Positions 112-17,875 of a DNA stretch of 17,875 nucleotides are shown here, piece by piece (positions within the stretch are counted from its first letter, which is position 1; each line of letters opens with the position of its first letter). Where the stretch lies: IMG/VR virus record IMGVR_UViG_3300045988_084715; one strand, written 5' to 3'. Position numbers and translations under genes: made by a program. The stretch is from a virus. The notes under the pieces were generated by a model that worked only from the letters and a program-made list of their open reading frames with translations, did no database searches and had not been told where the DNA came from.

Positions 112-142
112 GTGGTGTTGGTTTCAAGGGAAAGGAATTGAT

Positions 143-915: not shown

Positions 916-1434
916 ATGTTTGACCGTGGTGATGACAGAACGCCGATCTATCGTATGCGTCAGTTTGATGACGCGATTATGGAGTCACCTCGTGTTGTCA
1001 GAGCCACGCGGGGTCATACTCGTGAGTTGAATCTGAAACGGTATGATGTCGGGTTTGGTGATTTTGAATCGTGTTGCCGGGCTGTTAATATGCTGTGCGA
1101 ATTGTGGGGTGAAGCTCCGAGTGCTTGGTTTACGCAAGCGGTTGTTGCCGTGTCGCGGATATGCGCGGGTCTCTCTATGCGGGATGGACTCATTGATGTA
1201 TTGTCTCGTACGTATGATGTCGAGTATTTGGATGGTACTGTCAATCCGCCGAATTTGATTGCGTGGTGTGCTGTCTGTGCGGCCAAGGGCGGCACGTCAT
1301 ATGACTGTTGCACGGTTTTTGATAGTCCGCAAGCGCAAAACCTGATTATCGCCGTGTTTAAAAATTTTGACAGACTGGACACAACACGGTATAATGACAG
1401 TGGATTGCAAAAAATCTTGCTACAAGGGAGGTAA
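916..1434 (+). CDS. Hypothetical early protein (172 aa, Cys-rich), no recognisable family
   Basis: Clean ORF with good codon periodicity. It prefers T/G-ending codons (gat, ggt, cgt, ttg), unlike the C-ending codons of the rest of the genome. Weak SD (GGTG, 902-905). Its 3' end carries a consensus promoter. Confidence 0.65.
   Translation: MFDRGDDRTPIYRMRQFDDAIMESPRVVRATRGHTRELNLKRYDVGFGDFESCCRAVNMLCELWGEAPSAWFTQAVVAVSRICAGLSMRDGLIDVLSRTYDVEYLDGTVNPPNLIAWCAVCAAKGGTSYDCCTVFDSPQAQNLIIAVFKNFDRLDTTRYNDSGLQKILLQGR
1367..1395 (+). promoter_or_regulatory. Perfect sigma-70/sigma-A consensus promoter (early replication operon)
   Basis: TTGACA (1367-1372), a 17-nt spacer (1373-1389), then TATAAT (1390-1395), counted directly. 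It lies about 40 nt upstream of the GGGAGG SD and TTG start at 1437. Confidence 0.7.
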
Positions 1435-1757: not shown

Positions 1758-1812
1758 AGATTTTAGGCGTAAGCCTGAAAATAAAATAATAACAATCTAG
1801 GAAAGGTTAAAC

Positions 1813-2250
1813 ATGGAAAACACCAATAACGCACTCGTCGCATTCAACACCGAAAACACCGAACTCGGCACCGTCCAGCACTTCATCGACACTTCTACTC
1901 GTGAAGGCAAAATCAAGCTCTACAGCGCCCTACAGAACGCCGAAAAGCTCGATGAACACCTCAACGAGCCGCTGAACATGACGAACGCAGTCGCACAGGC
2001 CGTACAGGTGACCGACGATCAGACGGGAGAAGTCTCCAACACCGTGCGCGTCATCATCGTAACCGAGGACGGCAAGGCGTACGCGGCCACCTCACCGACT
2101 CTGGCGGCCGGACTCAACACCATGTTCGGCATTTTCGGAACGCCGAACACTTGGGACGCGCCACTCGCCATCAAGGTGGTGGAACGCCGCTCTCGTCGCG
2201 GCTTCAAGTTCTTCAGCATCGAACCGGTGGTGGACAAAAAGGCGAAGTGA
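1813..2250 (+). CDS. Single-stranded DNA-binding protein, phi29 p5-like (145 aa)
   Basis: SD GGAAAGG 7 nt upstream of the ATG. The N-terminus MENTNNALVAFNTENTELG resembles the remembered phi29 p5 N-terminus MENTNIVKATFDTETLEG. Further colinear matches: NAVAQ..QVTD..G, DGKAYAATS vs DGSLYSAIS, and the C-terminal RGFKFFSIE vs KGNVFFSLQ. Position matches phi29 gene 5. Confidence 0.65.
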   Translation: MENTNNALVAFNTENTELGTVQHFIDTSTREGKIKLYSALQNAEKLDEHLNEPLNMTNAVAQAVQVTDDQTGEVSNTVRVIIVTEDGKAYAATSPTLAAGLNTMFGIFGTPNTWDAPLAIKVVERRSRRGFKFFSIEPVVDKKAK

Positions 2251-3304: not shown

Positions 3305-3335
3305 CGGACAGGCAAGCAAGGGGGAAAGTTATACC

Positions 3336-4787
3336 ATGACCATGCAAGACAGTCGGGTGGGATTATGGTGCGCGGATAACGTCATCCGCTGTACGGACGG
3401 CACCGTTCTGTGCGACGTCACCGCGCCACAGTGCCTTCTGGCATCCATCATGTCAGGCGGGAAACTCACCGTCTATGTGACCGATCCTGACGTTTTGGAC
3501 CCGTTTATGGCGCACGTCGTACACTCCCTGCCCCACAACGAGCACAGCGCGAATCTGAGTTGGGACGCGATTGTTTCGAAAAAGGCGAAATTTTTCAGTT
3601 TCACGGTGCGTATCGACCGTGAGAATTCCGCGCGCTTTTTCGACATATCGAATCTTTTGCGTGAGAACTGCCGTCTCACCATGACCGACACGCAACTGCT
3701 CAACATCTTGCGTGAATACGACAGCCGTGGCCTGTGCAAGATCACGGCGGGCGGTGCAAGTATGGAAGCGTTCGCGTCGGGCGAGTGGAAATGGTATTAC
3801 GACAAATTCCCACAACTCGAACCGGAGGATAAAGAGTCATTGCATGACGCTTATATCGGCGGTTTCATGCTCGCCAAAGAGGGAGAGTACGGTCGGGCCA
3901 TCGACGTTGACTGCAATAGCATGTACCCGTCCATCCTCCGGGACGAATGGCTGCCGTGGGGCGAACCGGAACCATACGACGGCAAATATGAACAGGACAA
4001 TGACATGCCGCTGCATTGTGATGAAATCATATTCCGCGCGGAACTCAAACCGGACGGATACCCCTTCCTGCTCGACAACCGCAGTATCTACGGTTTGAAC
4101 CGACTCACCTCAACACGCGGATACATCATGCGCGTGCTGACCGACATCGATCAGGAACTGCTTTACCGGAATTATGAAGTGATCGTCTACAAGCACGTAA
4201 GGGGATGGAAATTCCGACGCTCCAAGGGTTTCTTCCGGTCGTACGTGGATGAATGGGGTGAACTGAAACAACAAGCAACCGGCGAGAAAAAACAGATGGC
4301 GAAACTCATTATGAACGCGCTTGTAGGTAAAATGGCGAGTCTGCCAAAAGGCGCCGTCATGATCCCAACCTCACAAGACGGCGTCACGTTGGACTGGACT
4401 ATGGGACGGCGTGAAGAATCGAACCTCAAAACCGACTATCTGCCCGTGCCGGTCTGGGTCAACGCCTACGCCCGACGCAAACTTATCGACGTATGCCATG
4501 CGAACGCCGACCGGCTGCTGTACGCCAACACGGACGGCTGTATTTTGAGCGGCTGGGATCCGGTGGAATCATGTGACATCCATCCGACCGAACTTGGAAA
4601 ATGGAAAATCGCCGCCAAGTACGAGAGACTGACCATCCTCGGCATGAACCGCTACCAAGGATGGCGTGATGACGGCGGGGTTGACGTCTGCATGGCGGGG
4701 AACATGTTCACGGAACCAATACCGTACGAACAATTCCGGCATGGATCGCAAGTCACGGACGATTACGGCACAACGGTCATGCTATAA
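3336..4787 (+). CDS. Family-B protein-primed DNA polymerase (483 aa)
   Basis: YxGG motif AYIGGF (Y173). Motif A: DVDCNSMYPS. Motif B: KLIMNALVGK, vs phi29 KLMLNSLYGK. Motif C: YANTDG, vs YCDTDS. ELGKWK...NRY corresponds to the phi29 KLGYW...KTY region. Motif A-B and B-C spacings are similar to phi29, which leaves room for the TPR1/TPR2 insertions. SD GGGGGAAAG upstream. Confidence 0.95.
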   Translation: MTMQDSRVGLWCADNVIRCTDGTVLCDVTAPQCLLASIMSGGKLTVYVTDPDVLDPFMAHVVHSLPHNEHSANLSWDAIVSKKAKFFSFTVRIDRENSARFFDISNLLRENCRLTMTDTQLLNILREYDSRGLCKITAGGASMEAFASGEWKWYYDKFPQLEPEDKESLHDAYIGGFMLAKEGEYGRAIDVDCNSMYPSILRDEWLPWGEPEPYDGKYEQDNDMPLHCDEIIFRAELKPDGYPFLLDNRSIYGLNRLTSTRGYIMRVLTDIDQELLYRNYEVIVYKHVRGWKFRRSKGFFRSYVDEWGELKQQATGEKKQMAKLIMNALVGKMASLPKGAVMIPTSQDGVTLDWTMGRREESNLKTDYLPVPVWVNAYARRKLIDVCHANADRLLYANTDGCILSGWDPVESCDIHPTELGKWKIAAKYERLTILGMNRYQGWRDDGGVDVCMAGNMFTEPIPYEQFRHGSQVTDDYGTTVML

Positions 4788-4788
4788 T
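4780..4788 (+). promoter_or_regulatory. Extended -10 promoter (TGcTATAAT) overlapping the polymerase stop codon
   Basis: T4780 G4781 c4782 TATAAT 4783-4788, with the TAA stop at 4785-4787. Same GCTATAATGG core as at 2265 and 13862. Confidence 0.45.
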
Positions 4789-4794
4789 GGTTGA

Positions 4795-4962
4795 GTCCTG
4801 TGAGCGCCGGTTTTCGACTGGGAACGGACGTGTGAGGACTGCCACGGCTGAAAACGCCGCCGAACACGATTCGCTGCTGTGGTGGCAGCGCCCTACGATC
4901 ATCACATTTGCGCTCCAATAGGACAGTCCAGGCCCCGCGCGATTGCGGGGTCATTTTACTTT
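4795..4962 (+). ncRNA. Candidate structured small RNA of about 165 nt (possible pRNA-like packaging RNA or other sRNA)
   Basis: Bounded by the promoter at 4780-4788 and the intrinsic terminator at 4931-4962. A possible 5'/3' closing helix pairs GUCCU (4795-4799) with AGGAC (4920-4924) and AGCGC (4803-4807) with GCGCU (4910-4914), around an internal loop. There is a hairpin CGCUGC-UGUGGUG-GCAGCG (4872-4890) and a GUUUUC/GAAAAC helix (4810-4815/4850-4855). Alternative reading: a 44-aa ORF at 4787-4921. Confidence 0.35.
4931..4962 (+). terminator. Rho-independent terminator closing the early region
   Basis: GGCCCCGC (4931-4938), loop GCGATT, GCGGGGTC (4945-4952), then ATTTTACTTT. Confidence 0.75.
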
Positions 4963-12344: not shown

Positions 12345-13832
12345 ATGGCAACGGTATATACGAAAACCGACAATTACGGCCTGAACCTGTACGGCGACAA
12401 CGACCCCGCCGACTTGCGTGATGGCTACAACGGCAGCATGCGCACCATTGACTCCACGCTCGAAACGCATCTCAATCGCATCGAAAGCGTCGAATCGCGC
12501 GAAATCCACGACGGGGAAGTAGCCAAAGCACTCCTCGGAGACAACACGGTGGACAATGCCACCACCGCGAAAACCAAGTGGGACAAGGCCGCAAGCAACG
12601 CCGACAATAACAGCGCCATCCTTACCGCACTCGGCGCGGGCACCACCGCGCACGCCACCGACGCGAAAAACAGATGGGATAAAGCGAGTACGGATGCGAC
12701 ATCCGCAATCGACAAGGCGGATACCGCAAACGACAAGGCGGATACCGCAAACAAAAAGGCGGATACCGCAAACGGAAAGGCGGATACCGCAAACGGAAAG
12801 GCCGAGAACAACAGCGCCATTCTTGCCGCATTGGGCACAAGCTCCATTGACCTCGCAACGACGAATAAAACCAAGTGGGACAAAGCCAGCACGGACGTTG
12901 CGGACGTGACGAAACGCATCAATATCCTCACCGGACTGGCACACGAAAACATCATAGTAGTCGGTGACAGTATATCTCATGGCACCCGCGCATCGTCTAC
13001 ATCAAAATCGTGGGCCAATCGGTTGGGTAAGTATAGGGGCGCGACCGTCGTCAATCTTGCGCAAGACAATGCAGGATACCTCAACGGGCCGACCACGTTC
13101 GCACAGCAGCTTAGTGGATTCACCGGTGACAAAGACGCCGTGACCCGTATTCTCGTCGCCGGTGGCATCAATGACAAAACTCATGTGGCGGACGGTTCTG
13201 CAACCGATTCACTGCTTACGAGTGCCGCGCTGTCGCTGTTGGATTATGCGCGCACCAATTTTCCGCACGCGAAAATTCAGGTCATTCCGACCATCTGCGG
13301 TTTCACTCCGCCATCCATCTATAACGGAGACGTGCTCAAGGCTCGTGATCGAATTATCACCGCTTGCGGGATGCGCCACGTGCAGGTCATTCCGTACGGC
13401 TGGGAGTGGCTCAACGGAAACAGGGATTGGAGTTCCGGCGATGACGTACATCCAAATGATGCAGGCAATGATGTGCTACTCAAGCTGATTTGCGAAGCGA
13501 TGGATGGCGCCACCGTACGCAATTCGTGGAATGGATATGTTTCCGGACAGGACGCCCACGGGGAAATCACGCATTCAGAATTCCACGTGGAGGGCGATAC
13601 GGTGACATGCCACATTCAAGGCAAAGTGGTGGGGAATACCGGCGCGTATGCAAATATTTTCCAAGTACCGGCCGCCGCACGTAGCGCGATGAACTACTTC
13701 GTTCCGAACAGCCTTAACAAGCTGCTGTATACGCATTATGACAATACTATTCGCGCTTGCACGATTGGCACCACCACGGCAATTCCGGATAACACCGAGG
13801 TCTATTTGAGCTTCACCTCCCACATGAGGTAA
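12345..13832 (+). CDS. Tail fibre/appendage with an SGNH (GDSL-type) hydrolase/esterase domain, 495 aa
   Basis: N-terminal fibre motif DNYGLNLYGDNDPADLRDGYNGSMRTIDSTL, followed by a repeat-rich stalk. SGNH blocks: VVGDSISHG (about nt 12963), AQDNAG, AGGINDK (about nt 13161), and DDVHPND (about nt 13440). A C-terminal domain of about 100 aa follows. Confidence 0.8.
   Translation: MATVYTKTDNYGLNLYGDNDPADLRDGYNGSMRTIDSTLETHLNRIESVESREIHDGEVAKALLGDNTVDNATTAKTKWDKAASNADNNSAILTALGAGTTAHATDAKNRWDKASTDATSAIDKADTANDKADTANKKADTANGKADTANGKAENNSAILAALGTSSIDLATTNKTKWDKASTDVADVTKRINILTGLAHENIIVVGDSISHGTRASSTSKSWANRLGKYRGATVVNLAQDNAGYLNGPTTFAQQLSGFTGDKDAVTRILVAGGINDKTHVADGSATDSLLTSAALSLLDYARTNFPHAKIQVIPTICGFTPPSIYNGDVLKARDRIITACGMRHVQVIPYGWEWLNGNRDWSSGDDVHPNDAGNDVLLKLICEAMDGATVRNSWNGYVSGQDAHGEITHSEFHVEGDTVTCHIQGKVVGNTGAYANIFQVPAAARSAMNYFVPNSLNKLLYTHYDNTIRACTIGTTTAIPDNTEVYLSFTSHMR
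12711..12794 (+). repeat. In-frame 21-bp tandem repeat x4 (heptad DKADTAN) in the fibre stalk
   Basis: GACAAGGCGGATACCGCAAAC at 12711-12731 and 12732-12752. Variants AAAAAGG... at 12753-12773 and GGAAAGG... at 12774-12794, with a partial fifth unit. The repeat is nested inside a unit of about 30 aa repeated three times (KTKWDKAS / NNSAILxALG). Confidence 0.95.
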
Positions 13833-13850: not shown

Positions 13851-13885
13851 AATGGCCATGCCGCTATAATGGTGGCATGGCCATT
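13851..13885 (+). promoter_or_regulatory. Perfect 12-bp palindrome enclosing a TATAAT box and the start codon of the tail lysin gene
   Basis: AATGGCCATGCC (13851-13862), loop GCTATAATGGT (13863-13873), GGCATGGCCATT (13874-13885). TATAAT at 13865-13870 lies 6 nt upstream of the A of ATG 13877. There is no usable SD. Confidence 0.5.
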
Positions 13886-15100
13886 ACTTTTGATGATTGG
13901 ATAAAACAGACGCAAGGCCGCTACTGGGACATGGACGGCGCGTACGGCGCCCAATGCTGGGACCTATGGGCAAAATACTGCATGGACCTGTACGGCGCGT
14001 CAGTAAGCGACTGCATCACACCAACCGGCTACGCAGAAGGCAACTACACACATTTCCCCACCAACGCGAAAATGGCGGCGATTTTCGAAAAGAAACCCAC
14101 CGACTACAGCCCCGTAAGGGGGGATGTGGCGTTCTGGAATTTCTCAAGCCATCACCCCGGATCACATGTGAGCATTGTCATCGAGAACGGCGTCCACGAC
14201 GGGCGCATCACCGTATTGTCGCAAAACCCCAACCCGGCGAAACGAATGACATTCGATCTGACCGCATTTCTCGGTTACCTCCATCCGAAGGCACTGGGTG
14301 AGGGAGGTGGAACGACCACCACGGAGAAAAACCCCACCGGCGACAACAGCCACGGTTCCGCCGATTCGTCGCGTGGCGGCGCGTGGATCCACTGGCAGGG
14401 AGACAACCTCTATCTCCACGAGTCCGACAACGCCGGAACGCGAACCCGCATTTTCTACAAGGCCACCGCCAACAATTTCTTGGAAAAGGCATCACAGTCG
14501 CAACCATCCAGCGACAAGGGACAGGCACACCCCTCCGTCTCTTTATCGGCGCAGAACTCATACGCCCTCTACGTGGTTGGCACGGTCGAATCAGGTCTAC
14601 GATGGGACGCGGTGGAAGCGGCCAACCGGCAGGGCATTGGAATCGCGCAATGGAGTTTCGAACGCCGCTTGCAAGTGCTCAACTCAATGGAAGCCGCCGA
14701 CCCAGCCGGATCCGCAACATTCAAAGCCGCCGCACCCGAAATCGCGGCACTCATGAAAACGGGCGGCACATTCAAACGTCCACTCACCACGGACGAAGCA
14801 GACGCCTTCCGCACATGGGCGCAACGAAGCGAGTCACGAGACGGCCAACGCAAGCAGTTCGCTGAGGATTACGCCGGATACCCCAAAGAGTACGAAGACA
14901 CCAAAATGCAGATTCTTTGGATGACCGCATATCACCAATCACCCGCCAACGCGCTCAAAGTGCCAAAGGCGTCGAACCTCGCACAACTCAAGAGCAACAT
15001 TCTATCCACGTTCCCGTTCGGCCCGTATACCACTCGATATAATCAGGCGTATTCGTTGTTAAGCGTGTGGGATGGGAAATCCAATCCGCCCGCGTTCTAA
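13877..15100 (+). CDS. Tail-associated peptidoglycan hydrolase: N-terminal CHAP domain plus a C-terminal lysozyme/SLT-like domain (407 aa)
   Basis: CHAP signature YGAQCWDLW (Cys) and PGSHVSIV (His), followed by a G/T/S linker. The C-terminal TVESGLRWDAVEAANRQGIGIAQWS resembles the SLT E-S...G-[LI]-x-Q pattern. Position corresponds to phi29 gp13. Confidence 0.8.
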   Translation: MAITFDDWIKQTQGRYWDMDGAYGAQCWDLWAKYCMDLYGASVSDCITPTGYAEGNYTHFPTNAKMAAIFEKKPTDYSPVRGDVAFWNFSSHHPGSHVSIVIENGVHDGRITVLSQNPNPAKRMTFDLTAFLGYLHPKALGEGGGTTTTEKNPTGDNSHGSADSSRGGAWIHWQGDNLYLHESDNAGTRTRIFYKATANNFLEKASQSQPSSDKGQAHPSVSLSAQNSYALYVVGTVESGLRWDAVEAANRQGIGIAQWSFERRLQVLNSMEAADPAGSATFKAAAPEIAALMKTGGTFKRPLTTDEADAFRTWAQRSESRDGQRKQFAEDYAGYPKEYEDTKMQILWMTAYHQSPANALKVPKASNLAQLKSNILSTFPFGPYTTRYNQAYSLLSVWDGKSNPPAF

Positions 15101-15105
15101 CAGTA

Positions 15106-15114
15106 TGGTATACT
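15106..15114 (+). promoter_or_regulatory. Extended -10 promoter (TGgTATACT) upstream of the packaging ATPase leader
   Basis: TG at 15106-15107, TATACT at 15109-15114. It resembles the ITR promoter TGgTATAGT and, like the left ITR copy, is followed by GGTGGTGT (15125-15132 vs 111-118). A TTGACA at 15114-15119 could instead pair with TAACCT 17 nt downstream. Confidence 0.45.
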
Positions 15115-15120
15115 TGACAA

Positions 15121-15216
15121 TGGCGGTGGTGTGTAATAACCTTTCCCCCTTGAACAGCCGCCAGATGACAGATTGGTGGAGGGCGCGCGAGTCATGGCGC
15201 ACGCCCTCCACTGTTT
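15121..15216 (+). promoter_or_regulatory. Structured leader or small RNA of about 95 nt with a C-rich anti-SD box and a terminator-like hairpin
   Basis: Helix UGGCGG (15121-15126) with CCGCCA (15158-15163) presents CCUUUCCCCCUUG (15140-15152) in its loop. A GC-rich hairpin follows: GTGGAGGGCG (15176-15185) with CGCCCTCCAC (15202-15211), extended by 3 bp, then TGTTT and the SD AGGAGGG (15217-15223). Confidence 0.45.
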
Positions 15217-15231
15217 AGGAGGGTTGCAAAC

Positions 15232-16299
15232 ATGACGTTGCAGACGCTCGATGAACACGATTATTACGATCTGCACAATCTGTTGACGCGGAACGCGCCG
15301 TGGAACTTCATCATCGGCGCACGCGGCCTAGGCAAGACGTTCGCCGCGAAAAGATACGGTATCAAAGAATATCTCAAGCACGGCCATGAGTTCATCTATC
15401 TCAGGCGCACCGACGTGGAACAGCACAGGAAGGAAACCTTTTTCAAAGACATTCAGGAGTTCTTTCCCTCATACGAGTTCAGGGTCAACGGTGAAAAAGG
15501 GCAGATCCATAAAACATCATGGAATGAAAAAGACTGGCGGACATGCTGTTATTTCGTCGCACTATCCCAAGCGGGCGGACTCAAGTCAGTCGCCTACCCC
15601 AAAGTGCATCTCATTATTTTCGATGAAATCTTCCCCGACAACCTGCGGTTTTTGAGCAATGAGGTAAACTCGTTTTCCGAATTTTACAACACCGTAGACA
15701 GGTGGCAAGACCGAACAAAAGTACTGTTCCTCTCGAACGCGGTTCAAAAAGCCAACCCATACTTCGCAAAATACCGGTTGGATATTGGCGTCCAACAAGC
15801 CAACCGGCAACAATACAAACTCTATTGCAGCGGGTTCATCTGTCTGGAGTTGGCCGACTATGGTGGTTTCTCGGCCAAAGTCGCGCAATCCAAGTTCGGC
15901 AGATTCCTCGAACGGTACGACGGTGAATACGCCGACTATGCCATACGCAACAAGTTCCGCGACGAGTCAGACACGTTGATAGCGCCAATCCCTAATGACG
16001 GCGAACTATCCTACGTTCTGGACACCACCGATTATGCGCAGTTCGGAGTGTGGGCTTCCGTGTCCGAACGCGACGGACATGTTTCCCAATATATTTCACG
16101 ACGCATTCCCAAAGACAACAACCGTCCAATATACACACTCGACCCGAACCATGTTGACGAAAAAACATGGTATGTCAAAAAATCGGATGATATAATAAGA
16201 CGGCTCACCACCGGCTATCGACTCGGCAAAATACGATTCGATGATTCACAAGTCAAAGCCGACTTCGGTTTGATTATCGGAGAATTGCTAGGTAAATAG
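15232..16299 (+). CDS. DNA encapsidation (packaging) ATPase, phi29 gp16-like, 355 aa
   Basis: WNFIIGARGLGKTFAAKRY...FIYLRR matches gp16 LNFVIGARGIGKSYAMKVY...FIYVRR (Walker A). AYPKVHLIIFDEIF matches AYPNVSTIVFDEFI (Walker B). LSNAVQKANPYF matches LSNAVSVVNPYF. Confidence 0.95.
   Translation: MTLQTLDEHDYYDLHNLLTRNAPWNFIIGARGLGKTFAAKRYGIKEYLKHGHEFIYLRRTDVEQHRKETFFKDIQEFFPSYEFRVNGEKGQIHKTSWNEKDWRTCCYFVALSQAGGLKSVAYPKVHLIIFDEIFPDNLRFLSNEVNSFSEFYNTVDRWQDRTKVLFLSNAVQKANPYFAKYRLDIGVQQANRQQYKLYCSGFICLELADYGGFSAKVAQSKFGRFLERYDGEYADYAIRNKFRDESDTLIAPIPNDGELSYVLDTTDYAQFGVWASVSERDGHVSQYISRRIPKDNNRPIYTLDPNHVDEKTWYVKKSDDIIRRLTTGYRLGKIRFDDSQVKADFGLIIGELLGK
16188..16196 (+). promoter_or_regulatory. Possible extended -10 promoter (TGaTATAAT) for the lysis cassette, inside the 3' end of the ATPase gene
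   Basis: TG at 16188-16189, TATAAT at 16191-16196. The 9-mer is identical to the late promoter at 4971-4979. It lies about 120 nt upstream of the holin ATG. Confidence 0.35.
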
Positions 16300-17734: not shown

Positions 17735-17766
17735 TTATTTTCCCTTTCCCTTGAAGTTGGTAATTA

Positions 17767-17875
17767 CACTATACCACAAACAAAACAACAACACCCAAAA
17801 ACAAAACACAACAACAACAACAAACACCCACCCACCAACCAACAAACTACACTTACGTAACCGTAACTTAGCTAA
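17767..17875. repeat. Right inverted terminal repeat (ITR)
   Basis: It is the reverse complement of nt 1-111, minus one GT dinucleotide. Confidence 0.95.
17768..17776 (-). promoter_or_regulatory. Extended -10 promoter at the inner edge of the right ITR, firing inward
   Basis: The reverse complement of 17768-17776 is TGGTATAGT, identical to nt 102-110. Confidence 0.45.

Follow-up and report, generated by a model that had tools for sequence, protein, structure and literature searches.

The endolysin-ATPase spacer

The window, that is, the whole stretch of DNA analysed (17,875 nucleotides), is the complete 17.9-kb genome of a phi29-like Bifidobacterium podophage with nearly all of its genes on one strand. 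The spacer between the endolysin and ATPase genes is kept in more than 100 relatives, and its order is extended -10 promoter, 5'-terminal hairpin (HP1), GC-rich hairpin (HP2), ATPase SD and ATG. In the window the features are as follows.

15106..15114, + strand: extended -10 promoter TGGTATACT, beginning 6 nt past the endolysin stop codon; activity inferred
15121..15163, + strand: HP1, the 5'-terminal hairpin; stem 15121-15127 with 15157-15163, loop 15128-15156
15135..15154, + strand: anti-early box AATAACCTTTCCCCCTTGAA in the HP1 loop, the proposed seed for early-gene initiation regions
15164..15172, + strand: single-stranded linker between HP1 and HP2, variable (0 to ~22 nt) and unconserved in sequence
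15173..15214, + strand: HP2, the GC-rich hairpin; core 15176-15189 with 15198-15211, loop AGTCATGG at 15190-15197
15212..15231, + strand: tail (TGTTT), ATPase SD (AGGAGGG, 15217-15223) and spacer, read directly
15232..16299, + strand: phi29-type DNA-packaging ATPase gene, ATG at 15232; matches PHROG 2150 (terminase) with E=7e-61

All 79 distinct spacer versions, drawn from GenBank and IMG/VR, have the promoter motif TGnTATAAT/TATACT in a constant position, as do new metagenomic lineages. In the window it is one of six extended -10 sites on the + strand, all mutually alike, so that 15106-15114 cannot be distinguished as late. The ATPase is 93% identical to the DNA packaging protein of phage BP1, and its gene has no promoter of its own after HP2, from which it follows that any ATPase transcript has to cross HP2. 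BadAztec1, Av-1, Fairywren and Mendel, phi29-like phages of actinobacteria that are more distantly related, lack the spacer and were unusable for comparison; the annotated 'packaging RNA' of Av-1 showed no significant fold.

Two hairpins with covarying stems

Direct checking confirmed that TGGCGG (15121-15126) is complementary to CCGCCA (15158-15163), which form the HP1 stem of the window. In most of 78 parsed spacer versions this stem begins 5-7 nt past the -10 element, which places HP1 at the predicted transcript start. HP1 stems are wholly unlike between lineages and pairing is always retained, as in TGGCGGT/GCCGCCA, TGGCAGT/GCTGCCA, GTCGGC/GCCGAC, GTCGACC/GGTCGAC, GCGGG/CCCGC, GCGTGATGGG/CCCATCACGC and GCACGTCATG/CATGACGTGC. 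The HP2 core reads GTGGAGGGCGCGCG/AGTCATGG/CGCACGCCCTCCAC (15176-15211), followed by TGTTT and then the ATPase SD. In the B and D clades, 6 of 11 HP2 pairs show compensatory changes and 98.9% of cells are paired, a result matched by 0 of 500 shuffles. For a set of 70 distinct sequences the paired fraction of stem cells is 98.6%, with many compensatory pairs, versus only 30-47% in slid controls. Both stems, HP1 and HP2, covary. The HP2 loop motif GTCATG hardly varies within the W, B and D clades and is absent from clade E and lineages L192 and L081.

These results depend on a hand-given structure and a covariance model, used because whole-element alignment with MAFFT and RNAalifold misaligned HP1 between clades; minus-strand matches of the palindromic HP2 were filtered from the covariance-model alignment, and the official pair count derives from a search at a stricter E-value. 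Covariance model R1 found one + strand match per genome at this site (15122-15216 in the window), any other matches being weaker, on the minus strand and over the palindromic HP2 only. The minimum-energy fold of the window's RNA, taken from its predicted start (15120-15218), consists of exactly two hairpins with the box unpaired (z-score -3.4; none of 200 shuffles equally stable). The minimum-energy folds of five lineages likewise have two hairpins and an open loop (z-scores -2.3 to -5.3), and the box lies inside the HP1 loop both in these folds and in the covariance-model alignment. No Rfam family came near its gathering score for the element, the best hit reaching 17.6 bits versus a threshold of 71.8.

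A small structured RNA with its own promoter, adjoining a phi29-type ATPase gene, could be this phage clade's analogue of the packaging RNA (pRNA); a 2024 review restricts known pRNAs to phi29 and related Bacillus phages, which leaves the slot open here. This explanation is all but ruled out. The pRNA family RF00044 gave no match at E<=10 in the whole window, nor in 15090-15245 with lax filters, and the element comprises two independent hairpins with a variable linker, without the 5'/3' A-helix that closes a three-way junction. The sole complementarity between its loops, AUGAC in loop 1 with GUCAU in loop 2, is not kept, and the HP2 loop is unrelated in clade E and L192. Finally, a much better pRNA candidate is present at 4794-4962.

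As a separate observation, the RNA at 4794-4962 is a second, pRNA-like RNA in this genome, and fits pRNA architecture better than the spacer element does.

Three further readings of the spacer were considered and rejected. Kissing between loop 1 and loop 2 (AUGAC/GUCAU) was discarded since the AUAAC, AUUAC and GUUAU variants are uncompensated. An upstream open reading frame from the ATG at 15194 to the TGA at 15233, overlapping the ATPase start (ATGA), was dismissed as a conserved feature, since in relatives its frame ends after 6-8 codons and lacks a usable SD ahead of it. A minus-strand gene with the box as its SD would have a 10-codon reading frame in the B clade, a 3-codon frame in the D clade and no start codon in the W clade.

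Loop complementarity to early-gene initiation regions

The HP1 loop contains two exact complements of early-gene initiation regions. CTTTCCCCCTTG (15141-15152) is the reverse complement of CAAGGGGGAAAG (3317-3328), which ends 8 nt upstream of the DNA polymerase ATG at 3336, and TAACCTTTCC (15137-15146) is the reverse complement of GGAAAGGTTA (1800-1809), which ends 4 nt upstream of the SSB ATG at 1813. The sequence TTCAAGGGAAAGG is present upstream of both ITR-proximal genes, at 123-135 (+ strand) and 17755-17743 (- strand). The coordinates and exact complements reported in the initial annotation all held when checked directly against the sequence. The predicted targets are listed below; the polymerase and SSB identities are supported by the same protein-family search that typed the ATPase.

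3316..3341, + strand: predicted target 1, DNA polymerase initiation region (SD, spacer and start codon); top genome-wide duplex site
1799..1815, + strand: predicted target 2, SSB initiation region AGGAAAGGTTAAACATG; 10-nt exact complement, duplex -16.5 kcal/mol
123..135, + strand: predicted target 3, box of the left ITR-proximal gene (ATG 143); duplex -17.0 kcal/mol
17743..17755, - strand: predicted target 4, box of the right ITR-proximal leftward gene (ATG 17734); box match
1423..1431, + strand: predicted weaker target, initiation region (CAAGGGAGG) of the 104-aa early gene starting at 1437 (g1437); duplex -12.7 kcal/mol

The predicted duplex between loop and polymerase mRNA comprises 22 bp (-27.8 kcal/mol) and in the window covers both the SD and the AUG. 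When RNAduplex was used to search the whole + strand for partners of the HP1 loop, the polymerase initiation region came first, at -29.5 kcal/mol versus -23.4 for the next site, and the polymerase site is top genome-wide in 32 of 67 genomes. In B-clade genomes, where the g1437 homologue is often the second-ranked site, mean duplex energies are -20.4 (polymerase), -16.9 (g1437) and -15.2 kcal/mol (SSB), compared with -5 to -10 for late genes. The g1437 homologue also carries its lineage's box in clades E, L080, L173 and L185. For the long W loops, and for the very short class-2 loops described below, genome scans on energy alone were too noisy to order the targets, and a motif census with tables of longest helices took their place. 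The early genes are not all addressed, as the gene in the terminal-protein position (2342) lacks the box.

It could be argued that a pyrimidine-rich loop will fit any purine-rich SD, and that the hairpins are merely the terminator of the upstream gene. SD regions are indeed purine-rich, and the loop resembles the 16S rRNA 3' end (CCUU core). However, dinucleotide-preserving shuffles put the expected count at 0.04 for the 12-mer match (up to one mismatch) and at 0.02 for the 10-mer; each was observed twice, and two were reached in 0 of 200 shuffles. A chance origin of the loop-target matches is thereby excluded. Late-gene SDs are unmatched, the complementarity reaches non-SD spacer bases and covaries, and class-2 loops are not C-rich, which together leave the wider explanation by composition with next to no support.

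Loop and targets change together across lineages

Complementarity between the HP1 loop and early-gene initiation regions, those of the polymerase and SSB among them, is seen in at least 11 lineages, and loop and targets switch together among three box types: GGAAAGG, AAGGGAAG and AAGGTTG. The longest Watson-Crick helix formed by the loop is 6-13 nt with the polymerase initiation region and 5-10 nt with that of SSB, compared with a maximum of 4-6 nt (mean ~4.4) against eight late genes. The changes can be followed base by base. In the B and D clades the loop ATAACTTCCCTTG matches the polymerase sequence CAAGGGAAGTTAT, while the L083 pair, loop ACATCTTCCCTT and polymerase AAGGGAAGATG, represents two double compensatory changes; in L185 an A to C change at the polymerase is accompanied by U to G in the loop, and in L183 a 13-nt loop-target match reaches into the spacer. 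The AAGGTTG type is found in four lineages (L080/81, L173, L174-177 and L192) with unrelated HP1 stems, whose loops contain GCAACCTT and whose polymerase, SSB and g1437 initiation regions carry AAGGTTG(C). These class-2 loops (GCAACCUU) lack the UCCC motif and present CAACCUU opposite the AAGGUUG boxes.

Permuting loops among the 11 lineages gave a mean sum for the polymerase of 71.8 versus an observed sum of 105, which none of 20,000 permutations reached; the corresponding p-values were 1e-4 for SSB and 0.047 for g1437. Neither the shuffle nor the permutation p-values are corrected for phylogenetic relatedness, and the truly independent co-variation events number roughly 5-8. The motif census placed coding-strand copies of the loop core's reverse complement almost exclusively 5-10 nt ahead of the start codons of early-region genes and the right-end gene, and none at late genes; a single inverted copy lies in the loop. 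In L174, for example, 5 of 5 + strand box matches are early initiation regions. The box also reaches beyond the SD-anti-SD core, with GUUAU and GGUUGC in the spacer, and so plain mimicry of the 16S 3' end is no explanation.

In the window's own clade the polymerase initiation regions vary, the match with the phage's own loop is often just 7 nt with a bulge, and B/D-type loops would match these regions better than the own loop does; the strongest loop partners in this clade are SSB and the ITR-proximal genes.

A DNA-level regulon, in which the box is the site of a co-evolving phage or host DNA-binding regulator and RNA complementarity a by-product, would account for part of these observations, as an inverted site in double-stranded DNA is an identical site and co-variation of every copy between lineages is equally expected. 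We nevertheless consider it very unlikely. The box is fixed 5-10 nt from start codons, including those of internal operon genes without a nearby promoter, such as the polymerase gene ~30 nt behind the preceding gene, and its lone inverted copy is without exception placed in a hairpin loop closed by a covarying stem, which a DNA site would not need. Moreover, positions that are not Watson-Crick pairs in the duplex are mostly G.U rather than A.C (28 vs 7, 45 vs 9 and 35 vs 13). This bias is expected if both partners are + sense RNAs, and favours RNA-RNA pairing; a 3-5 fold preference for G.U in the differences between the loop and the reverse complement of its targets is strand-specific, and is predicted by RNA pairing and not by a DNA site.

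The main idea of the initial annotation, that a trans-acting RNA pairs through its loop with early-gene SD regions, is thus supported as far as comparative sequence analysis goes. It had proposed that loss of complementarity where the ribosome-binding sites of relatives differ would refute this idea, and the opposite was found, with co-variation in at least 11 lineages and three box types. Its emphasis on a C-rich box held only in part: the W, B and D loops contain the C-rich UCCC motif, but the CAACCUU of class-2 loops shows that C-richness itself is unconserved.

HP2 termination and effects on the ATPase gene

The HP2 stem is GC-rich and stable, with a loop of 8-12 nt across lineages. Its U-tract is interrupted: of 78 versions, 73 have 4-6 T in the best 8-nt stretch following the stem, the window has 3, and L081 and L083 have 2 each. 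The tail of clade E is also not U-rich, and a terminator scan does not flag HP2. Judged on sequence alone, HP2 appears terminator-like yet imperfect and is not a canonical terminator, and termination there is unproven. A cleanly terminated RNA of ~95 nt, as envisaged in the initial annotation, may therefore be doubted, because ATPase mRNA must cross HP2 and the U-tail is only moderate or, in some lineages, missing.

The obligatory passage of ATPase mRNA through HP1 and HP2, with no later promoter, is also an argument for a purely cis-acting leader or attenuator, in which HP2 would be a partial terminator or stabiliser setting a low ATPase dose and the SD would be sequestered by the loop or by the HP2 3' arm. 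A 5'-terminal hairpin is a plausible mRNA stabiliser. Within the window's clade a helix is possible between CCCTCC of the HP2 3' arm and GGAGGG of the SD, and the duplex of the loop with the ATPase initiation region is predicted at -15 to -19 kcal/mol. Across lineages, however, the helix between loop and ATPase amounts to 3-5 Watson-Crick pairs, equal to the late-gene background, and that between the HP2 3' arm and the SD to 5-6 bp in W-type lineages and 3-5 bp elsewhere. Gating of the ATPase SD in cis, which the initial annotation had offered as its alternative, consequently fits only the window's clade, with its 6-bp CCCTCC/GGAGGG helix. A purely cis-acting leader would furthermore not account for the way in which the loop follows the early-gene box across three classes of sequence. 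We regard it as an unlikely sole explanation, though a cis effect on the ATPase may coexist as an extra role of the RNA. The HP2 loop GUCAUG could additionally form 7 bp with CAUGAC at the polymerase or ATPase start in the W clade, which is partly trivial since CAUG is palindromic, and the HP2 loop differs in clade E, L192 and L081.

A proposed trans-acting repressor of early genes

The comparisons above show that the structure is conserved, that the loop is complementary to its targets, that this complementarity is confined to early-gene initiation regions and that loop and targets co-vary. Promoter activity, start site, pairing in vivo, repression and timing are inferred. With this distinction in mind, we lean towards the hypothesis that the leader, possibly as a ~95-nt sRNA, represses early-gene translation in trans. 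The spacer would encode a structured RNA module starting at its own extended -10 promoter, with HP1 at the extreme 5' end exposing an unpaired loop, followed by HP2 and the ATPase ribosome-binding site. The loop would serve as the address sequence for a box, specific to each lineage, that makes up the SD and spacer of the polymerase, SSB and 104-aa protein genes and of the ITR-proximal gene at either end. As a minimum, the RNA would be the 5' leader of the ATPase-holin-endolysin mRNA, and perhaps it also exists as an RNA of ~95 nt freed at HP2. Pairing in trans is predicted to cover the SD, plus the start codon in the case of this phage's polymerase, so that ribosome binding would be blocked and/or decay triggered, and synthesis of replication proteins would be lowered while packaging and lysis transcripts build up.

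The pairing could be real and have another outcome, as the comparative evidence shows pairing and not its sign: early mRNAs might be stabilised or activated, they might act as sponges for the ATPase/lysis transcript, or decay might be coupled through a double-strand RNase. We consider such outcomes unlikely. A duplex on the SD, and in the window's polymerase on the AUG too, has occlusion of the ribosome-binding site as its default consequence, and the very stable HP2 separates HP1 from the ATPase SD, which would make an effect on ATPase translation less direct. Repression in trans remains our preferred reading. The initial annotation had further suggested that the RNA is expressed late and replaces a missing p4-type switch; both stay inferences only, as there are no expression data and the absence of p4/p6 is unverified.

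A bolder version of the trans-repression hypothesis, which in our judgement is slightly more likely to fail than to hold, is that one loop acts as a class-wide translational off-switch in a virulent phi29-like phage. All early genes, in both arms, would carry the box and the packaging/lysis leader the anti-box, so that the accumulating packaging/lysis transcript would outcompete the ribosome on early mRNAs only, and box and anti-box would co-evolve between phage lineages in lock-and-key fashion.

Temporal control in phi29-like phages is a textbook protein-based transcriptional switch and, to our knowledge, almost nothing is known of gene timing in these minimal genomes outside Bacillus phages. 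The element suggests a compact solution, a single loop addressing a gene class through a shared ribosome-binding-site box. Phages BP1 (host B. pseudocatenulatum U19) and BD811P1-3 (host B. dentium DA811) are in culture, and the classes of co-varying box and anti-box lend themselves to swap tests of the prediction. These phages infect gut Bifidobacterium, and Actinobacteria generally lack Hfq; for this group, box and anti-box together would make a small, orthogonal repressor of translation. For annotators, the element is a reason not to treat the endolysin-ATPase spacer as empty.

Comparison with known systems

In the literature searched, no case is described of a virulent phage whose replication genes are repressed in trans by one of its own RNAs, and the phage sRNAs listed in one review come mostly from temperate phages and prophages. 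The phi29 pRNA (RF00044) is similarly a small, promoter-driven, structured RNA in a phi29-like genome, but the spacer element fails both the architecture and the covariance-model tests for it. A closer parallel is the c4 RNA of phages P1 and P7, which is phage-encoded and trans-acting, with short loops that pair with the ribosome-binding region of the target; a review lists c4 as a trans-acting RNA of 77 nt with ant mRNA as target. The P1 and P7 c4 regulator and its target differ in a matched way between related phages, as do loop and box here. In contrast to the present element, c4 acts on one operon (icd-ant) in temperate-phage immunity and is processed from its target's own transcript. The element belongs to a virulent phage and its predicted targets are a class of early genes 11-15 kb upstream on other transcripts, or on the opposite strand at the right end; it is not co-transcribed upstream of a target operon, and an Rfam search of the element gave no match to the C4 family.

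Among bacterial RNAs, the C-rich (UCCC-motif) sRNAs of Gram-positive bacteria, such as the hairpins of Staphylococcus aureus RNAIII and RsaE/RoxS, use a pyrimidine-rich loop to block several G-rich SDs with no obvious need for Hfq. The W, B and D loops of the element resemble them in containing CUUCCC or CUUUCCCC. The element nonetheless has no sequence or structure homology to these sRNAs, is phage-encoded and fused to an mRNA leader, and conserves complementarity to a lineage-specific box rather than C-richness. Listeria SreA acts in trans though derived from a riboswitch, and SreA/SreB and IsrK illustrate how a 5' leader element by a terminator-like hairpin can regulate a distant mRNA through pairing. 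They differ from the phage element in that no ligand-binding aptamer is evident in the latter, for which termination at HP2 remains to be proven.

With respect to function, the nearest counterparts are phage-encoded proteins. T4 RegA is a repressor of many early mRNAs and has been reviewed in the context of T4 translational repression; like the proposed RNA, it is a phage factor that targets many early initiation regions in a post-transcriptional shut-off of translation. RegA is, however, an RNA-binding protein, whereas the repressor proposed here would be a base-pairing RNA loop. In phi29, a member of the same phage group, the p4/p6 switch turns down early genes as late functions start, but this control is transcriptional, protein-based and exerted at divergent promoters, while that proposed here would be translational and RNA-based. 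If the bolder reading is true, the loop would represent an RNA-based counterpart of T4 RegA or of the phi29 p4/p6 switch.

Genome and gene setting

The window is a complete linear genome of 17,875 bp with inverted terminal repeats (ITRs) of ~95 nt, and shares 76-80% identity across about half of it with the Bifidobacterium podophages BP1 and BD811P1-3. Nearly all genes lie on the + strand, with a single small leftward gene at the right end. PHROG profiles identified a holin and a second endolysin, together with the following genes:

1813-2250, SSB
3336-4787, DNA polymerase, protein-primed type
13877-15100, endolysin or cell-wall hydrolase
15232-16299, packaging ATPase, phi29-type

Extended -10 motifs (TGnTATAAT-like) occur six times on the + strand (102, 2264, 4780, 4971, 15106 and 16188) and once on the - strand, within the right ITR. 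An identical extended -10 (TGTGGTATAGT) is present at both ITR ends, each followed by near-identical early-box initiation regions. The + strand of the ITRs and left ~900 nt (1-900, 17760-17875) has an extreme G/T bias (GC skew +0.4, AT skew -0.4). The sole perfect sigma-70 consensus promoter of the genome (1367-1395, +; TTGACA-17-TATAAT, 12/12 matches) lies upstream of an early gene encoding 104 amino acids (start 1437; hereafter the 104-aa gene), and the motif at 16188-16196 (+; TGATATAAT), within the 3' end of the ATPase gene, is well placed to serve as a separate promoter for the holin and endolysin genes. A perfect 16-bp hairpin at 13851-13885 (+), flagged as a terminator, holds TATAAT in its loop and the endolysin/hydrolase ATG (13877) in its 3' arm, and may act as terminator, promoter and translational gate combined.

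A conserved two-hairpin RNA precedes the ATPase gene

Everything that the initial annotation had stated about the sequence of the endolysin-ATPase spacer and its complements was confirmed by direct inspection. An extended -10 (TGGTATACT, 15106-15114) precedes a 5'-terminal hairpin (HP1; helix TGGCGG/CCGCCA), whose loop includes exact complements of the polymerase SD region (12 nt; 15141-15152 versus 3317-3328) and the SSB SD region (10 nt; 15137-15146 versus 1800-1809), and TTCAAGGGAAAGG boxes occur at both ITR-proximal genes, the outermost gene at each end. A GC-rich hairpin (HP2, 15176-15211) follows, then TGTTT and the ATPase SD. The 12- and 10-nt complementary words were each observed twice, compared with 0.04 and 0.02 occurrences expected from dinucleotide-preserving shuffles. 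RNA folded from the predicted start forms exactly two hairpins with the complementary box unpaired (z = -3.4). The polymerase initiation region ranks first in a whole-genome duplex scan (-29.5 vs -23.4 kcal/mol), and its predicted duplex with the loop comprises 22 bp in three segments (-27.8 kcal/mol), covering both SD and AUG.

Relatives comprised 219 sequences from IMG/VR, obtained by ATPase protein query, and 45 metagenomic contigs, mostly whole genomes, obtained by portal query. The 79 distinct spacer versions share one anatomy: stop codon, extended -10, HP1 (beginning 5-7 nt past the -10 in most versions), variable linker, long GC-rich HP2, short tail, SD and ATG. With a covariance model trained on a single sub-clade, each genome gave one + strand match, always in this spacer (window 15122-15216); the model's other matches were weaker, confined to the minus strand and over the palindromic HP2, and more distant phi29-like phages gave no match. 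Stem cells are 98.6-98.9% paired with many compensatory pairs, values equalled by none of 500 column shuffles, and slid registers gave 30-47%. HP1 is near-constant inside clades B and D, and its stem is wholly different between lineages yet remains paired (TGGCGGT/GCCGCCA, GTCGGC/GCCGAC, GTCGACC/GGTCGAC, GCGTGATGGG/CCCATCACGC, GCACGTCATG/CATGACGTGC, GCGGG/CCCGC). Four more distant actinobacterial phi29-like phages (BadAztec1, Av-1, Fairywren and Mendel; loci L085, L086, L087 and L088) lack the spacer, their ATPase gene touching or overlapping the gene before it, so the leader element is specific to the human-gut Bifidobacterium clade. An Rfam search of the element returned no family matches, and on this basis we assign it to no described RNA family.

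The HP2 loop GUCAUG (window 15190-15197) is nearly invariant in clades B, D and W (the window's own), forms the palindrome GUCAUGAC in B and D, and is the complement of CAUGAC at the start codons of polymerase and ATPase. An unrelated sequence occupies the loop in clade E (UCGAAUGGGUUC), L192 and L081, and the role of the conserved loop is unexplained. A 13-codon uORF running from this loop (15194-15235, +), with its TGA overlapping the ATPase ATG (ATGA), was considered and rejected, as it is not conserved and the frame ends after 6-8 codons in relatives.

The HP1 loop co-varies with early-gene initiation regions

Joining ATPase-centred to polymerase-centred loci yielded 67 near-complete genomes, to which whole-genome metagenomic contigs were added. 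Complementarity between the HP1 loop and the polymerase initiation region is present in essentially all lineages, and loop and target co-vary. The initial annotation would have been refuted by loss of complementarity where the ribosome-binding sites of relatives differ; the opposite was found, with loop and site changing together.

Table. HP1 loops and their early-gene partners by lineage
B/D-type phages: loop ATAACTTCCCTTG; polymerase CAAGGGAAGTTAT; 12-13 nt
L183: 13-nt match, reaching into the spacer
L083: loop ACATCTTCCCTT; polymerase AAGGGAAGATG; two positions altered on both sides
L185: polymerase A to C with loop U to G
L080/L081, L173, L174-177 and L192 (four lineages, unrelated HP1 stems): loops with GCAACCTT; AAGGTTG(C) directly 5' of the polymerase, SSB and 104-aa gene starts
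Window's own clade: loop GA[U/C]GACCUUUCCC...; best partners SSB (GGAAAGGTTA) and the ITR-proximal genes

In representatives of 11 lineages, the loop forms a longest Watson-Crick helix of 6-13 nt with the polymerase and 5-10 nt with SSB, against a maximum of 4-6 nt (mean ~4.4) with late genes. When loops were permuted among lineages, none of 20,000 permutations equalled the observed polymerase sum (105, permuted mean 71.8); SSB (p = 1e-4) and the 104-aa gene (p = 0.047) were also supported. No phylogenetic correction was applied to these p-values, and the independent co-variation events number ~5-8. Mean duplex energy also separates the gene classes: in clade B it is -20.4 (polymerase), -16.9 (104-aa gene) and -15.2 kcal/mol (SSB), whereas late genes give -5 to -10 kcal/mol.

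The loop core of each lineage was reverse-complemented (to GGAAAGG, AAGGGAAG or AAGGTTG) and its occurrences were recorded. On the coding strand this box falls almost exclusively 5-10 nt before a start codon, either of a gene within the left 5 kb or of the leftward gene at the right end. It was never found at late genes, and the only inverted copy is formed by the loop. All five + strand matches in L174 are at early initiation regions; BP1 has matches at three such regions, at the right-end gene and in the loop. The box is missing from the gene in the terminal-protein position (2342). The sole + strand GGAAAGG copies outside early-gene initiation regions derive from a 21-nt direct repeat (CCGCAAACGGAAAGGC...; 12766-12810, +) within a 495-aa gene (12345-13832).

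An inverted double-stranded DNA site for a regulator protein would co-vary too; however, three points argue for RNA pairing instead. Firstly, the boxes keep a fixed distance to start codons, even within operons. Secondly, a covarying hairpin, located where a transcript is predicted to begin, always displays the lone inverted copy in its loop. Thirdly, at non-Watson-Crick duplex positions G.U is 3-5 times commoner than A.C (28/7, 45/9, 35/13), an asymmetry that only pairing between two + sense RNAs would be expected to give; for example, polymerase GUUAU pairs with both GAUGAC and GAUAAC loops. Mimicry of the 16S 3' end is by itself insufficient, because complementarity reaches spacer bases outside the SD-anti-SD interaction.

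Leader, short RNA or cis element

No promoter was found in the 20 nt between HP2 and the ATPase ATG, and therefore every ATPase mRNA includes HP2, as well as HP1 if started at 15106 or upstream. The element is thus at least a 5' leader of the ATPase mRNA, with promoter use inferred. The terminated RNA of ~95 nt envisaged by the initial annotation remains possible but unproven: HP2 resembles a terminator in its GC-rich stem of 11-20 bp, but the tail that follows is interrupted (U at 4-6 of 8 positions in most versions, three in the window, two in L081 and L083, and not U-rich in clade E) and a terminator scan did not flag it. The alternative that the loop or HP2 controls the ATPase SD in cis fails beyond the window's clade, as loop-ATPase helices are only 3-5 bp in all lineages and the proposed CCCTCC/GGAGGG pairing of an HP2 arm with the SD is limited to W-type lineages.

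A second conserved RNA with pRNA topology

A promoter between the polymerase and capsid modules (4780-4788, TGCTATAAT), overlapping the polymerase stop codon, precedes a ~165-nt RNA ending at a strong terminator (4931-4952 plus U-tract); promoter and RNA together occupy window 4780-4962 (+). Across 78 versions, ~125 nt fold as a 5'/3' closing helix and a three-way junction with two hairpins, followed by the terminator, with compensatory changes in 20 of the 40 pairs and 99% of cells paired. Its internal-loop GCCAC complements the second hairpin's loop GUGGC, a pairing compensated as ACCAC/GUGGU in two lineages (L162, L002) and carrying U.U mismatches in six sequences. This RNA is unannotated in BP1 and BD811P1-3 and has no Rfam match. 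Its topology is that of phi29 pRNA, so the ATPase-leader element need not be read as a pRNA. The GenBank 'packaging RNA' of Actinomyces phage Av-1 (16295-16402) overlaps minus-strand ORFs and folds no better than shuffles (z = +0.5); on this evidence the annotation appears unsupported.

Proposed mechanism and comparison with known systems

The structure of the element, its complementarity, its restriction to one gene class and its co-variation are shown. We cautiously favour a model in which the leader of the packaging/lysis transcript, perhaps with a short RNA freed at HP2, would present the HP1 loop for pairing in trans with the box of early-gene ribosome-binding sites, thereby occluding them; promoter use, in vivo pairing, repression and timing are all inferred. 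Even if the promoters do not fall into classes, build-up of the RNA with genome copy number would provide feedback or a timer. The 'late' expression proposed in the initial annotation is not established, because the extended -10 sites all resemble one another.

The papers describing BP1 and BD811P do not mention non-coding RNA, and the phage sRNAs in a 2025 review come mostly from temperate phages and prophages, with none from a phi29-like phage. The job proposed for the element is that of T4 RegA and phi29 p4/p6, and the closest in way of working are the P1/P7 c4 antisense RNA and the C-rich-loop sRNAs of Gram-positive bacteria.
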